From a virus (taxonomy: Duplodnaviria > Heunggongvirae > Uroviricota > Caudoviricetes), in the IMG/VR virus record IMGVR_UViG_2529292716_000008: 10,137 bases of DNA; one strand, given 5' to 3'. Positions 1 through 10,137 of this stretch are shown piece by piece (within the stretch, counting starts at the first letter, position 1; each line of letters starts with the position of its first letter). The notes beneath the pieces were generated by a model, which was not told the origin of the DNA, made no database searches, and was given only the letters and a program-made list of their open reading frames with translations. The position numbers were made by a program, and so were the translations under genes.

Positions 1-1239
1 ATGAGCAGCGCAATTCATAGACTTAGCGACACTCTTTTACGAAAATTAAGCGGATCACCAACCACAAAAAACGCCTTTTTTAATGACGGTGGCAATCTTA
101 GCGTAAGACATTCCACCAGCGGCCTGTTAACCTGGTATTTCACTTACAGGGCCGGAACTGGCAGGCAGGTATCACCGGAACGCCTGAGACTGGGCAACTA
201 TCCCGATCTGAGCCTGAAAGCAGCCAGGGAAAAAGCGGCACAGTGTCGCGCCTGGCTGGCTGAGGGGAAAAATCCGCGCTATGAGCTTAATCGTGCTGTA
301 CAGGATGCGTTAGCCCCCGTGACAGTTAAGGAAGCGCTCACTTACTGGCTTGAATCGTATGCAAAGGAAAAGCGCACTGACTACGAATCACTGAAAAGCC
401 GGATCAATAAACACATAATCAGCCAGATTGGCGCTTTGCCGTTGGAAAAATGCGAGCTACGGCACTGGTTGGCATGTTTTGACCAGATGGCAAAGCGAAG
501 CCCAGTATCTGCCGGATTTTTGCTACAGGTATGCAAACAGGCGCTTAAGTACTGCCGAAAACGACGATACGCAATCAGCAACGTTCTTGATGATATGGTT
601 GTCGGTGATGTGGGAAAAAAAGCAGAAATAAGCGAGCGCGTACTAACAAACAAGGAGCTTGGGGAATTACTCCGCGCCCTGGATGAAAAAATTTACCCAC
701 CGTACTACAGCGCCCTGATTCGCCTCCTGATTGTCTTCGGATGCCGTGCCACTGAGCTAAGACGCTCTGAGGTCCAGGAATGGGATTTTAAAGAAATGCT
801 CTGGACCGTGCCGAAAGAACACAGCAAAACGAAGGTAGCAATATTCAGGCCAATACCGGAAGCGATCTTGCCGTTCGTAACGAAGCTGGTGGAGCAGAAC
901 AGGCACACGGGATTATTGCTCGGAGAACTGAAAGGGCAATCATCCGTATCAGAGTACGGAAGAACGGCACACAGACGCATTAATCAAGCCCCCTGGACGT
1001 TGCACGACATCCGGCACACGTTTACAACGATGCTGAACGATTTAGGCGTGGATCCTCATGTAGTGGAGCAGCTAACCGCGCACCAGTTGCCAGGAGTGCA
1101 ACGAGTCTATAATCACTCCCGTTATCTCGATGCAAAACGTGACGCTCTTAATCTATGGGTTGAGCGTCTCGAGCTTCTCCAGAACAATGATGAAAAAATC
1201 GTTGTTATGACCCCGCGAATTTACTCCCAAAATTCTTGA
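1..1239 (+). CDS. int: Tyrosine recombinase / integrase, P4-like family
   Basis: 412-aa ORF starting at window position 1. C-terminal catalytic signature of tyrosine recombinases is visible: HxxR box (LHDIRHTF) and a downstream Tyr (RVYNHSRY). Length and layout are typical of P4-type integrases of integrated elements. The att site and any flanking tRNA lie outside the window. Confidence 0.9.
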   Translation: MSSAIHRLSDTLLRKLSGSPTTKNAFFNDGGNLSVRHSTSGLLTWYFTYRAGTGRQVSPERLRLGNYPDLSLKAAREKAAQCRAWLAEGKNPRYELNRAVQDALAPVTVKEALTYWLESYAKEKRTDYESLKSRINKHIISQIGALPLEKCELRHWLACFDQMAKRSPVSAGFLLQVCKQALKYCRKRRYAISNVLDDMVVGDVGKKAEISERVLTNKELGELLRALDEKIYPPYYSALIRLLIVFGCRATELRRSEVQEWDFKEMLWTVPKEHSKTKVAIFRPIPEAILPFVTKLVEQNRHTGLLLGELKGQSSVSEYGRTAHRRINQAPWTLHDIRHTFTTMLNDLGVDPHVVEQLTAHQLPGVQRVYNHSRYLDAKRDALNLWVERLELLQNNDEKIVVMTPRIYSQNS

Positions 1240-1282
1240 CAAATTACGGCTGTTTTTCTTGCGAAAAATGGCCCTCTAAAAT

Positions 1283-1316
1283 AAATCGTCGAATATCGGC
1301 AAATATCGACGATTTA
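1283..1316 (+). terminator. Imperfect inverted repeat followed by a T-rich tract; possible int terminator or protein-binding dyad
   Basis: AAATCGTCGA (1283-1292) pairs with TCGACGATTT (1306-1315) around a 13-nt loop, followed by TATATG. About 45 bp downstream of the int stop codon. Not folded computationally. Confidence 0.3.
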
Positions 1317-1534
1317 TATGTGTCAACTATCGAAAAAAATTGAAATGTCTTCTTCTGAGTTCTTATTCTCTGTTTCTTGATTATTCCAATACCTGATGGT
1401 TTATCTATTTGTTTTTAATGAGGTAATTCAGGTGTCATGCCAAATGGCGACATTTTTTGTTGCGTCGCTTAAAAACTCGTGACACGATTTTAAACACTAA
1501 CGAGCTTCTACGAACCTTAGCGAACAAAGCCTTT

Positions 1535-1543
1535 AGCATGGTT
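1535..1543. repeat. IS1 target-site duplication, left copy (AGCATGGTT)
   Basis: The 9 bp immediately left of the IS1 left end are identical to the 9 bp immediately right of the IS1 right end (2312-2320). Confidence 0.9.
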
Positions 1544-1598
1544 GGTGATGCTGCCAACTTACTGATTTAGTGTATGATGGTGTTTTTGAGGTGCTCCA

Positions 1599-1874
1599 GT
1601 GGCTTCTGTTTCTATCAGCTGTCCCTCCTGTTCAGCTACTGACGGGGTGGTGCGTAACGGCAAAAGCACTGCCGGACATCAGCGCTATCTCTGCTCTCAC
1701 TGCCGTAAAACATGGCAACTGCAGTTCACTTACACCGCTTCTCAACCCGGTACGCACCAGAAAATCATTGATATGGCCATGAATGGCGTTGGATGCCGGG
1801 CAACTGCACGCATTATGGGCGTTGGCCTCAACACGATTTTACGTCACTTAAAAAACTCAGGCCGCAGTCGGTAA
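1599..1874 (+). CDS. insA: IS1 InsA (transposition inhibitor / N-terminal part of InsAB' transposase)
   Basis: 91-aa [43 protein letters not shown]... with zinc-finger-like CxxC...CxxC and HTH region, recognised as IS1 InsA. Confidence 0.9.
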
Positions 1875-2296
1875 CCTTGCGCATACAGCCGGGCAGTGAC
1901 GTCATCGTCTGCGCGGAAATGGACGAACAGTGGGGCTATGTCGGGGCTAAATCGCGCCAGCGCTGGCTGTTTTACGCGTATGACAGTCTCCGGAAGACGG
2001 TTGTTGCGCACGTATTCGGTGAACGCACTATGGCGACGCTGGGGCGTCTTATGAGCCTGCTGTCACCCTTTGACGTGGTGATATGGATGACGGATGGCTG
2101 GCCGCTGTATGAATCCCGCCTGAAGGGAAAGCTGCACGTAATCAGCAAGCGATATACGCAGCGAATTGAGCGGCATAACCTGAATCTGAGGCAGCACCTG
2201 GCACGGCTGGGACGGAAGTCGCTGTCGTTCTCAAAATCGGTGGAGCTGCATGACAAAGTCATCGGGCATTATCTGAACATAAAACACTATCAATAA
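1793..2296 (+). CDS. insB: IS1 InsB reading frame (expressed as InsAB' transposase by -1 frameshift at the A6C motif)
   Basis: ORF in the -1 frame relative to insA, overlapping its 3' end. The A6C slippery motif at 1850-1856 is the known IS1 frameshift site. Coordinates are those of the open frame from the ORF track, not an independent start. Confidence 0.85.
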
Positions 2297-8875: not shown

Positions 8876-9597
8876 ATGGCTTCTCTACATTAAACAAAGT
8901 GCCGGAAGGCGCGGAATATAAATACATCACCACCAGTGACCGTGGCGAACCAATCGCGCTGGCAACTTACGGAAATATTTTCAGCATTACCCGACAGGCG
9001 ATTATTAACGATGACCTGAATCAGTTAACAGTTATCCCACAGGCAATGGGGCGAGCAGCCGCCAGAACGGTGGGTAATCTGGTTCATCTGGTGCTGACAG
9101 GAAACACAAAGCTTTCTGACGGTATACCGCTGTTCAGCAAAAAACACGGAAATGATATTGATAACGGAGTCAGCACTACAGGGCTTGGCATTGCACGCCG
9201 TGCAATGCGCACACAGAGGGATGAAAACGGTGAGGTGCTGAATATTGTGCCAAAATTCCTTCTTGTTCCTGCGGCTCTGGAAGACAGAGCGTTGCAAATG
9301 GTTAACTCAACCACGCCTTTCGGTGCCGATACAAACAGTGGTTCATATAACCCGTACCACAAACAACTGGATATTATTGTCGATCCCCGCCTTGATGAAG
9401 TCAGTGATAAGCAATGGTACATGCTTTCAGCACAGGGAACGGACACAATTGAGGTGGCTTATCTTGACGGTAATGACGAGCCTTACCTTGAGCAGCAGGA
9501 GGGCTTTATTGTTGACGGTGTGGCCTGGAAGGTCCGCATTGATGCTGGCGTTGCTGCTCTGGATTATCGCGGAATGGTCAGAGCGATTTCTTCATGA
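8839..9597 (+). CDS. Major capsid protein, HK97-fold-like (start uncertain; may be made as a continuation of the upstream ORF by frameshift)
   Basis: 252-aa open frame from the TTG at 8839 (frame open from 8785; no ATG or GTG upstream in frame). Sequence character and position directly after a prohead protease fit a major capsid protein (ends ...VDGVAWKVRIDAGVAALDYRGMVRAISS). 252 aa is short for a complete HK97-fold protein, suggesting the N-terminal part is encoded in the upstream frame. Confidence 0.65.
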   Translation: MSNFHEARRVGLNGFSTLNKVPEGAEYKYITTSDRGEPIALATYGNIFSITRQAIINDDLNQLTVIPQAMGRAAARTVGNLVHLVLTGNTKLSDGIPLFSKKHGNDIDNGVSTTGLGIARRAMRTQRDENGEVLNIVPKFLLVPAALEDRALQMVNSTTPFGADTNSGSYNPYHKQLDIIVDPRLDEVSDKQWYMLSAQGTDTIEVAYLDGNDEPYLEQQEGFIVDGVAWKVRIDAGVAALDYRGMVRAISS

Positions 9598-9601
9598 GAA
9601 C

Positions 9602-9625
9602 AAGGCGGCAGCAGCCGCCTTTTTT
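9602..9625 (+). terminator. Rho-independent terminator after the capsid gene
   Basis: GGCGGC (9604-9609), loop AGCA, GCCGCC (9614-9619), followed by a T6 run (9620-9625), immediately after the capsid stop at 9595-9597. Confidence 0.7.
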
Positions 9626-9630
9626 GCGGG

Positions 9631-9819
9631 TCCTCCTGGTGGGGGGGGCCTGTCCACGGGGCGGGTCGGCGCGGAAAAAAGCGCATTTTTGTGGTTTTAT
9701 CGTCATCATCATCATGTGTGTAACCTGTTGTTTTTAATGTGGTTGATGCAAAAAAGATGATGATTGTGGTTAATTTTTGTTCGACATCTTTTAGCGTGAC
9801 AGATTCTTTACAAAAAATC
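9631..9819 (+). promoter_or_regulatory. Conserved regulatory cassette, copy 2: G-rich box, AT-rich tract, TTTTGTTCGAC-N21-TTTACAAAAAA
   Basis: CCTGGTGGGGGGGGCCTGTCCACGGGGCGGGTCGG (9635-9669), GCGCGGAAAAAAGCGC mini-hairpin with T-tract, TTGTTCGAC (~9777-9785), TTTACAAAAAA (9807-9817). Same order and spacings as copy 1 (G-box to GTTCGAC 129 vs 130 bp; GTTCGAC to TTTACA 28 bp in both). Confidence 0.6.
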
Positions 9820-9855
9820 TGAGCTTGTTTTCTTAACCAGCGCGATGGGGGCACA

Positions 9856-10137
9856 ATGACAGAAGCCGAAATACTGGGATTAATCCGCCGCGTCGCCGGA
9901 ATCAGCCAGCAGGTTGACGAACAGGCCATGCAACCGGACAGCGTGACCGCTGAAAATTATGCGCGTGTGGTGGATGAGGTAATGCGCCGTGACGGTATTG
10001 AGCTTAACGGCGTGGATATGCGCAACATACGAACCAGAGTTCTTGAGTTGCTGGCATACCGTCGCCGTTCTCAACAACGGAGGGAGAGCGCGAAAAATAC
10101 TTACCAGTGGAGGAAGCCGGAGCACTTACGGCGGTAA
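9856..10137 (+). CDS. Hypothetical protein (93 aa), first gene after the second regulatory cassette; possibly a head-completion or packaging protein
   Basis: ATG at 9856 with a G-rich SD-like stretch (GATGGGGG) upstream. Protein MTEAEILGLIRRVAGISQQVDEQAMQPDSVTAENYARVVDEVMRRDGIELNGVDMRNIRTRVLELLAYRRR... No recognised motif; the functional guess is positional only. Confidence 0.45.
   Translation: MTEAEILGLIRRVAGISQQVDEQAMQPDSVTAENYARVVDEVMRRDGIELNGVDMRNIRTRVLELLAYRRRSQQRRESAKNTYQWRKPEHLRR

Follow-up and report, generated by a model that had tools for sequence, protein, structure and literature searches.

Phage-inducible chromosomal islands (PICIs) of Gram-negative bacteria, and among them the Escherichia coli islands of the 'EcCI' group, are the closest described systems to the element studied here, which fills a viral stretch of 10,137 nucleotides (IMG/VR record IMGVR_UViG_2529292716_000008; 'the window' below is this whole stretch) and carries a broken gene for a prohead protease, scaffold and major capsid protein (MCP) in one. 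In the SatelliteFinder scheme the PICI core consists of an integrase, an alpA-type regulator, a primase-replicase, a capsid morphogenesis gene and the small terminase gene terS; tail, holin, portal, head-tail connector and adaptor genes are forbidden components (PMC10085698). A layout of four zones, Integration, Bro, Replication and Late, was described by Tommasini, Mageeney and Williams, with capsid genes as the late genes most often captured by Gram-negative PICIs, some of which have CLP_protease genes (bioRxiv 2022.07.18.500453). Capsid-forming PICIs (cf-PICIs) are defined in addition by portal, head-tail adaptor/connector, HNH, terS and large terminase (terL) genes (bioRxiv 2022.09.08.507074; PMC10085698), and P4-like satellites have a core set of psu, delta, sid, alpA, epsilon, alpha and integrase (PMC10085698). 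In the relative EcCICFT073, AlpA is the regulator needed for induction (PMC6092414), and cos is present twice, as cos1 and cos2 (PMC6739421). The cos-packaged satellite SaPIbov5 encodes Ccm, a homologue of the helper capsid protein, which takes up the pentamer positions and gives small T=4 shells, as seen by cryo-EM (Hawkins et al. 2021, PMC8569155).

A Shigella sonnei PICI at cspD-clpS

We found that the window corresponds to almost the whole of a classical cos-packaged Gram-negative PICI of the EcCI group, namely to the copy that Shigella sonnei carries between cspD and clpS, in a partly decayed state; we put the probability of this reading at roughly 85%. The island is an already catalogued PICI of S. 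sonnei and E. coli and its kind is not new; Table S2 of Fillol-Salom et al. 2018 (PMC6092414) lists ssn:SSON_0868 of S. sonnei Ss046 as a PICI at 922309-936578. Nucleotide alignment of the window with S. sonnei loci gave 99.95% identity, exact copies of the integrase and of a shortened 381-aa protease open reading frame (ORF) are present in thousands of S. sonnei assemblies, Ss046 (CP000038) included, and the small proteins encoded by the window are all exact S. sonnei sequences. None of the complete E. coli genomes exceeds ~93% overall identity to the window. The sole difference from most S. sonnei copies is that these carry an extra insertion sequence (IS) of the IS3 family in pri-rep, at window ~5818-5824; the intact 605-aa Pri-Rep has no exact match on record.

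In the S. sonnei contigs the island lies between cspD/yljB and clpS, the start of clpS being 640 bp past orf93, the right-end gene. Alignment against the empty K-12 site revealed a 22-bp duplicated stretch containing ATGATAGTTAT, the att core; attL is found 167-188 bp to the left of the window and attR 534-555 bp to the right of the window and of the end of orf93. The whole element is the window plus ~0.7 kb of non-coding ends and measures ~10 kb without its IS elements. The cspD-clpS site with core ATGATAGTTAT is also that of EcCIIHE3034 and EcCI18098 (PMC6092414). An 18-bp repeat, AATGGTGTAGTTAATTTT, was considered as att core and rejected, the empty K-12 site placing the duplicated core further out; this 18-mer is repeated internally, at either end of the element, and probably marks arm sites of the integrase. 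Just outside the window on both sides (L012, an S. sonnei locus, 930-984 and 12800-12877), the element ends hold repeated TTGTTCG and doubled GGTGTAGT(C/T)AAT motifs, which are probably arm-type sites of the integrase as well. A doubled motif resembling GGTGTAGT(C/T)AAT is given as the 'att core' of EcCIDI14 (PMC6092414 Table S1).

The gene order is int, IS1, alpA, a variable zone, the icd-like gene, orf106, the DUF4222 gene, pri-rep, the iteron origin, orf81, ssb, cos, orf64, the tripartite capsid gene, cos and orf93 (Table 1). In EcCIIHE3034 and EcCICFT073-type PICIs the genes follow one another in this order as well, from int and alpA through small ORFs, the DUF4222 gene, pri-rep and an iteron origin to orf81-ssb, cos, the late cassette and orf93. 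EcCICFT073 shares in addition the two cos sites and a capsid-protein homologue in the late cassette. In contrast to these PICIs, the island has a fusion gene of Gifsy-2/mEp460 type instead of a lambda-E-like capsid gene with D-like decoration and TerS/Rpp-like genes; it also differs in its mEp460-like cos sites (cosB side included), its IS1, its frameshift and the lack of any Rpp or TerS homologue found.

An earlier note on this DNA, drawn up from the letters alone, had described a P4-related satellite-like island with its own protease and capsid genes, and had left the choice between a cf-PICI that steals tails only and a compact phage. The satellite-like character that it saw in the island is right. 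Four of the five PICI core components are present, the capsid-morphogenesis gene being counted though frameshifted; no window ORF has a family match to a small terminase or an Rpp homologue, and forbidden components were found neither in the window nor between the att sites in S. sonnei contigs. With four of the five core components and none of the forbidden ones, the island is a 'Type B' PICI, accepted by the published model (PMC10085698). As in other PICIs, the integrase gene stands at one end, att repeats mark a specific chromosomal site, and pri-rep is followed by an iteron origin with two iteron sets around an AT-rich stretch. The order of the four zones and the captured helper late gene agree with the layout of Tommasini et al., and a relative (L020, below) sits in terL of a prophage; unlike such helper-embedded satellites, the window copy occupies a chromosomal intergenic site, and its integrase gene and that of L020 do not match in nucleotide sequence. 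The published classes accommodate the island as a classical PICI of the Gram-negative type that has captured a capsid gene of helper type in its late zone (PMC6092414, PMC10085698, bioRxiv 2022.07.18.500453). The synteny comparison proposed in the note came out for the EcCI PICIs, and neither for the P4 set (three of the seven core components) nor for the head genes of cf-PICIs.

A tripartite capsid gene broken by a 13-bp deletion

Both protein domains that the earlier note had seen in the late region, ClpP-like protease and capsid, are recognized by Pfam (Table 1), so that the absence of capsid-fold and ClpP-fold profile matches, named in the note as what would speak against it, is not the case. 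The two domains do not belong to separate genes, as the note had it, but to one fusion gene split by a 13-bp deletion at 8793/8794. The deletion leaves ORFs 7730-8875 (protease and scaffold) and 8839-9597 (MCP), which align as collinear halves of an intact 629-aa homologue from an E. coli O111:H8 island. The intact homologue matches NCBIfam NF045540 'scaf_prot_MCP1' with an E-value of 2.7e-268 and 892 bits (cut-off 475) and so shows the single-polypeptide architecture of this family; in the window the reading frame is broken. Gifsy-2 reportedly offers the precedent for such a 'tripartite capsid gene'. The upstream orf64 is kept in front of the fusion gene in relatives and has no Pfam or PADLOC match; a ribbon-helix-helix fold is our guess from its sequence.

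The intact satellite protein aligns over its full length with the fusion proteins of phages mEp460, cdtI, CP-1639, VT1-Sakai and several Shiga toxin 2 (Stx2) phages at 51-52% identity. Aligned with the mEp460 protein alone it shows 54% identity and is missing a 34-residue linker segment after the protease domain. The satellite version has the three-part architecture, the family and the proposed catalytic residues of the Gifsy-2/mEp460 type (S83, H106 and D170, a ClpP triad assigned from ClpP motifs and invariant in the alignment), and differs from it in its length of 629 aa, in the missing linker segment and in being 51-54% identical to any phage copy. The mEp460 gene is flanked by the portal gene and the decoration gene and follows downstream of terS and terL, whereas the satellite copy stands alone, with no neighbouring portal or terminase genes.

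The phage fusion proteins differ by ~22% from each other and by ~49% from the satellite copies. The 629-aa fusion is 99% identical across three PICI backbones: that with alpha-type Pri-Rep at cspD-clpS, that embedded in terL, and that with RepA helicase at yejM/tRNA-Pro. Between the window and the O111 copy the ratio of nonsynonymous to synonymous divergence (dN/dS) is 0.11 in the protease-scaffold part and 0.12 in the MCP part. The ~51% identity to phages, the 99% identity across backbones and the dN/dS of ~0.1 argue for a long-maintained, satellite-adapted gene and not for fresh debris; from its sequence, the fusion gene looks maintained and adapted to satellites, in a lineage of its own. 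A full-length match (at least 80% of the gene) was obtained in 143 of the 5426 complete E. coli genomes, and the gene is annotated as intact among the matches listed for these genomes.

Synonymous divergence (dS) from the O111 copy reaches 0.85 in the MCP part vs 0.14 in the protease-scaffold part; as the MCP part is far more diverged, the fusion gene is a mosaic. Among the best 120 database matches there is no intact protein with the MCP allele of the window. Along the gene, nucleotide identity to the O111 copy is 90-100% in the protease-scaffold half and only 72-79% in the middle of the MCP part (8986-9385).

AlphaFold2 modelling of the intact homologue with an alignment of 12 sequences gave a mean confidence score (pLDDT) of 45.6, with ~60-90 in the ClpP domain and <50 in the MCP part. 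The capsid part matches Mu-like gpT at E 1.9e-11 and has weak sequence matches to solved capsid proteins, Mu GpT-domain chains among them (E 5e-4 to 9e-3). An HK97/Mu gpT-type fold is accordingly predicted for the C-terminal domain from the profiles (PF25209 and Mu-like gpT) and from these weak matches.

With a frameshifted fusion gene and with alpA separated from its upstream region by IS1, the island is probably immobile or crippled; in S. sonnei it is probably a clonally inherited fossil.

Two mEp460-like cos sites

The capsid cassette is bracketed by two lambdoid cos sites. In the cosQ-cosN core, site A is 80% identical to mEp460 vs 60% to lambda, and site B 79% vs 60%. Over ~200 nt with the cosB side included, site A has 71% identity to mEp460 vs 52% to lambda, the range for both sites being 68-71% vs 52-54%. 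The stretch of site B (9622-9823) aligns over 203 nt, at 85.7% identity, with the cos region of a prophage in E. coli O157:H7 (L020, 661-862). On inspection, the printed ends of P4 showed no likeness to the cos sites of the window.

In a sister island with a lambda-type cassette of capsid and decoration genes the cos core is 82% identical to lambda, so the type of cos and the type of capsid appear to go together in the two cassette types compared. An exception is EcCIIHE3034, which has a lambda-type cassette and whose first cos is ~89% identical to the cos sites of the window.

Since the cos sites and the fusion gene both resemble those of mEp460, cdtI and Stx-type lambdoid phages, we infer that such phages would serve as helpers. 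The helper terminase would then recognize the island's cos directly, with no redirector of the Rpp type needed by the island. EcCICFT073 needs Rpp, as its cosB differs from the cosB of its helpers (PMC6739421). A packaging redirector like Rpp was looked for among the ORFs of the island and set aside: none resembles TerS or Rpp, and the cosB side is like that of the helper itself; an unrecognized factor, for instance the orf64 product, could still act in this way.

The replication module and its relation to P4

Judged by alignment, Pri-Rep is a P4-alpha-type SF3 helicase with a C-terminal origin-binding domain, residues 150-600 being 50% identical to residues 320-771 of P4 alpha (E 5e-163). Pfam profiles detect in Pri-Rep neither of the primase domains of P4 alpha, Zn_Ribbon_Prim and Toprim. 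The N-terminal ~150 aa (4285-4740) are unrelated to the alpha primase part that they replace; residues 1-150 match PHROG 864 'DNA primase' (5e-20) and PHROG 2850, with no Pfam or PDB match. Of the P4 alpha-like primase/helicase with iterons in the earlier note, the iterons and the helicase and origin-binding parts therefore stand, and with them the P4 relationship of the replication module; the alpha primase domains fall away, and the full P4 set of primase, helicase and origin-binding domains is present in its last two parts only.

The octamer TGTTCACC occurs nine times in the window vs 0.31 expected, eight of the copies being clustered at 6133-6353. In P4 the same octamer has 11 positions, all on annotated 'ori type 1 repeat' features in crr and ori, and window 6259-6316 shares 80% identity with a part of the P4 origin. 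Homologies between PICIs and P4 have been called "distant" (PMC6092414); the Pri-Rep allele of this island is, in its sequence, closer to P4 than that wording suggests, which we read as a shared replication module and not as membership of the P4 family.

In tblastn searches with all P4 proteins the matches to the window were limited to int, vis and the C-terminal part of alpha; sid, psu, delta, epsilon, cI, gop/beta/cII, orf106 and orf151 of P4 had no match there. An Rfam scan of the whole S. sonnei element at the gathering threshold was empty, which indicates that there is no P4-type CI (C4/IsrK) RNA.

Proposed life cycle and role of the capsid gene

For islands with this cassette we propose the following cycle. 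A lambdoid helper phage would turn on alpA, and Int would excise the island at the ATGATAGTTAT core. Pri-Rep would bind the TGTTCACC iterons beside its own gene and drive replication, and the helper terminase would cut and package the concatemers at the island's own cos sites. Packaging would go into heads that need at least the portal, terminase and connectors of the helper, and helper tails would be used as well; a capsid protein without portal and terminase cannot make or fill heads unaided, so head and packaging proteins of the helper must be supplied besides the tails.

In intact relatives the fusion protein would co-assemble with the helper capsid protein or replace it. Either way, assembly would be biased towards satellite-sized shells or damage the assembly of helper heads, as Ccm of SaPIbov5 does. 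By this analogy, remodelling or interference of the Ccm kind is the functional role that we rate as most likely, tentatively and at somewhat short of an even chance. The analogy is functional: SaPIbov5, like the island, is a cos-packaged satellite encoding a homologue of the helper MCP, but Ccm has no sequence relationship to the fusion protein and carries neither a protease nor a scaffold part, and its role has been seen by cryo-EM while the island is known from its sequence. We consider it unlikely that the tripartite gene of PICIs is a long-standing satellite-specific lineage of at least two clades from which intact islands would obtain the complete shell (protease, scaffold and coat) of satellite-sized heads, these being assembled on a portal stolen from the helper and packed by its terminase via matching cos. 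Were this true, it would define a 'shell-only' capsid-forming satellite, placed between classical PICIs and cf-PICIs.

The window itself, as a decayed, catalogued and clonally inherited S. sonnei island, matters little. Of wider interest is a tendency of PICIs from E. coli and Shigella to have a late cassette (cos plus capsid homologue) of the same type as the heads of one particular set of lambdoid helpers, Stx-converting phages included; the match is seen in the two cassette types compared, with the first cos of EcCIIHE3034 as exception. The role of the capsid homologues of Gram-negative PICIs has been put to a deletion test only once, in EcCICFT073, where no phenotype was seen; an island that is intact and has protease, scaffold and coat in a single gene would be a convenient system for its study.

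Alternative readings

As a cf-PICI, the island would make and fill its own small heads and steal tails only. It does encode a prohead protease and an MCP, and its int-alpA-rep left half is of the kind common to PICIs and cf-PICIs (bioRxiv 2022.09.08.507074). The definition of cf-PICIs, however, also demands the genes for portal, head-tail adaptor/connectors, HNH, TerS and TerL; none of these lies in the att-bounded element, no remaining ORF has a match to such a family, and the island has ~10 kb vs 15.4 kb for cf-PICI EcCIEDL933. Of the head and packaging set there are only the capsid and protease functions, fused and broken. The earlier note was right that terminase, portal and tail genes are missing from the window, and the same holds out to attR in the S. 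sonnei contigs. A full tail and lysis module within the same att-bounded element, which the note had set beforehand as the sign of an ordinary small prophage, was looked for and none was found. As the att bounds enclose no portal, terminase, connector, tail or lysis gene, the cf-PICI and compact-phage readings lose their basis, and we give the former next to no credence. A satellite of the P4 kind, using P2-type helpers and with sid and psu swapped for a capsid gene, is suggested by the helicase and origin-binding part of alpha, the identical TGTTCACC iterons and the likeness to the P4 origin, by a Vis/AlpA homologue of 45% identity and by an arm-binding tyrosine integrase of the same domain architecture; the small cos-packaged genome of ~10 kb is another likeness. 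It is nevertheless very improbable: the island lacks sid, psu, delta, epsilon, the alpha primase domain and the other P4 genes named above, no C4/IsrK-type RNA was found, a capsid-protein homologue stands in for an external scaffold like Sid, both cos sites are of lambdoid and not of P2 type, and the gene order is that of the EcCI PICIs. Nor do we give more weight to a remnant of a small or defective lambdoid prophage with the head gene as debris. The fusion type is a normal head gene of lambdoid phages, the window copy carries an IS and a frameshift, and in one S. sonnei contig the right end of the island abuts prophage head genes. Against this, islands of the same compact make-up (9-10 kb) whose fusion gene is intact are found at several att sites, and the gene has full-length matches in many complete E. 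coli genomes; the gene is under purifying selection in a lineage separate from the phages; and repressor, antirepressor, lysis and tail genes are missing from the island.

A further alternative leaves the classification as a PICI untouched and concerns the captured capsid gene, which might not remodel heads at all, being either a spare copy that substitutes for the helper gene, an idea of Tommasini et al., or neutral cargo. This is a real possibility, one that we hold to be less than probable. In EcCICFT073 deletion of the capsid and decoration homologues (c1499/c1500) changed neither transfer nor interference, and the DNA of this island is packaged in full-size heads (PMC6092414); a captured capsid gene may thus have little effect. 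Relatives of the island moreover sit inside helper late genes, and the capture of late genes by PICIs is common. On the other side, the divergence from the helpers, the near identity across unrelated backbones and the low dN/dS point to long maintenance and not to a recent spare, and the helper gene interrupted in L020 is terL, not the capsid gene.

The EcCICFT073 results also weigh against the reading that we prefer, that of a classical cos-packaged PICI whose capsid gene acts on helper heads, and some further points do so. The flanks were read from the 99.95%-identical S. sonnei contigs, as the window's own contig was not recovered. The proposed life cycle has been shown experimentally for EcCICFT073 alone and is extended from there to islands with this cassette; helper-driven induction and transfer at high frequency are likewise documented for relatives such as EcCICFT073, and the helpers are named from likeness of sequence. 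IS1 stands between alpA and its upstream region, with a putative effect on alpA expression. As to the broken frame, a simulated −1 slip at the A_AAA_AAG heptamer downstream of the deletion leads back into the MCP frame, for a product of 622 aa in which 11 residues are substituted and no stop codon intervenes; it is a matter of speculation that such slipping could yield some full-length fusion protein, and the phase of the heptamer has one-in-three odds of arising by accident.

Other features of the island

Coordinates of all features are given in Table 1. Besides the 13-bp deletion and the loss of the alpha primase domains, two features of the island had no place in the earlier note, IS1 and the pair of cos sites; the integrase (as a tyrosine integrase) and AlpA that it had named are both confirmed by Pfam, and so is its single-stranded DNA-binding protein (SSB).

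Table 1. Features of the island in the window (aa, amino acids; E-values follow the family names)
Feature	Position	Strand	Evidence and remarks
Tyrosine integrase, 412 aa	1-1239	+	Pfam Arm-DNA-bind_3 1.3e-16, Phage_integrase 6.1e-18
IS1	1544-2311	+	insA 1599-1874, insB' 1793-2296; Pfam Zn_ribbon_InsA, HTH_Tnp_IS1, DDE_Tnp_IS1
alpA, 69 aa	2426-2635	+	Pfam Phage_AlpA 2.1e-16; named AlpA in source records
271-aa ORF called by some annotators	2646-3461	+	Overlaps the minus-strand YlcI/YnfO-like ORF; no family match; probably spurious
Variable zone ('Bro zone' of Tommasini et al.)	2747-3433	−	Between alpA and the replication genes
58-aa ORF	2747-2923	−	In the variable zone
YlcI/YnfO-family ORF	2981-3286 (or to 3433)	−	NCBIfam YlcI_YnfO_N 3.1e-16; PHROG matches
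Icd-like small protein, 65 aa	3487-3684	+	Source records 'host cell division inhibitor Icd-like'; PHROG 'transcriptional repressor' families 1.4e-23
orf106	3677-3997	+	PHROG family of unknown function; syntenic in all relatives
DUF4222 protein	4004-4303	+	Pfam DUF4222 7.4e-17; PHROG unknown function; syntenic in all relatives
Pri-Rep, 605 aa	4285-6102	+	Pfam D5_N, DUF5906, Pox_D5
Replication origin	6117-6353		Eight TGTTCACC iterons, both orientations, around an AT-rich stretch, directly 3' of pri-rep
orf81	6406-6651	+	Corresponds to SSON_0875
SSB	6648-7070	+	Pfam SSB 3.9e-16
cos site A (cosQ-cosN-cosB-like)	~7107-7300	+	Past the ssb terminator
orf64	7539-7733	+	Stop overlaps the fusion-gene start (ATGA); PHROG 4934, unknown function, 4.3e-40
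ClpP-like prohead protease/scaffold/MCP fusion, pseudogene	7730-9597	+	Pfam CLP_protease (PF00574) 3.7e-33, Phage_capsid_4 (PF25209) 1.5e-49
A_AAA_AAG slippery heptamer	8827-8833	+	In phase in the deletion-created frame, 34 nt downstream of the deletion
cos site B (cosQ GGGTCCT, then cosN-like, cosB-like)	~9622-9815	+	Past the capsid-gene terminator
orf93, right-end gene, unknown function	9856-10137	+	PHROG 1561, 2.9e-53

The integrase is 23% identical to P4 Int. IS1, a complete copy, lies between int and alpA, ~115 bp upstream of the latter, and is flanked by a 9-bp target duplication, AGCATGGTT, at 1535-1543 and 2312-2320; it is missing from two E. coli relatives (L001, the O111:H8 island, and L022). 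The alpA gene, whose likeness is to P4 Vis (orf88), is co-oriented with the rest of the island. In the variable zone, ORFs other than the YlcI/YnfO one have no Pfam or PADLOC match, and no alignment to the E. coli relatives (L001) was obtained for window 3011-3643. SSON_0875 is given as orthologue of an EcCICFT073 gene in PMC6092414 Table S2. The leftover ORFs of the window that were searched have no Pfam match, and together with the small conserved ORFs they have no match to a defence system in PADLOC. Consensus scans of the sequence for promoters and terminators gave numbers of sites not above those in shuffled sequence.

Related islands and moving late cassettes

The right-end gene orf93 is kept in six relatives (L001, L002, L020, L021, L022 and L023) and is present with either type of late cassette. 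It was considered as a possible counterpart of 'rdgR', an accessory gene listed for all E. coli PICIs (PMC6092414). EcCIIHE3034 and the AST240 island have a backbone of the window type with a different late cassette, which in EcCIIHE3034 consists of a lambda-E-like capsid gene, a gene for a D-like decoration protein and a TerS-like gene. An intact relative of the window island at cspD-clpS is found in E. coli O111:H8 7-58 72A (NZ_CP077499.1, 3784127-3793393).

In E. coli O157:H7 SS TX 313-1 (L020, NZ_CP038302.1, 1372-13925), an island with orf64, the 629-aa fusion gene and orf93 lies inside terL of a lambdoid prophage that has its own portal gene and a 659-aa fusion capsid gene. Since it sits in terL of a prophage with head genes of its own, this island counts as a helper-embedded satellite as Tommasini et al. 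use the term. A second clade of PICI-borne fusion genes (L023-L025, E. coli, genes at 9001-11940) encodes a protein of 637 aa and 62% identity; 520 blocks of the sequence collection contain this exact protein. The gene is followed by a DUF1441 gene, whose family also occupies the TerS position in the prophage of L020, and this clade occurs on a backbone of the window type at cspD-clpS and also behind a different integrase.

In E. coli RM9387 (L021, 3134-12429) the fusion cassette, with a 99% identical protein, was observed in an island at yejM/tRNA-Pro which has a RepA-family helicase instead of the alpha-type Pri-Rep and a PerC-family regulator in addition. As the cassette is found there beside a RepA-family helicase, this late cassette moves between PICI backbones.

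Two S. sonnei contigs showed unusual arrangements. In FUCV01000007.1 (L015, 4423-13161) the island sequence ends ~240 bp past orf93, and ~135 bp further a prophage begins in the middle of terL; it is 98.8% identical to mEp460 over 8.4 kb and has a portal gene, a 675-aa fusion gene and tail genes. The junction may reflect a rearrangement, another helper-embedded copy or sequences joined in assembly; whatever its nature, a prophage of the helper type is present in S. sonnei. In FTSK01000019.1 (L016, 5362-5793) a second copy of the segment from cos B to orf93 (window 9706-10137, 99.8% identity) stands just past clpS and is followed by thiamine-kinase-type genes, which suggests recombination with another PICI, or misassembly.

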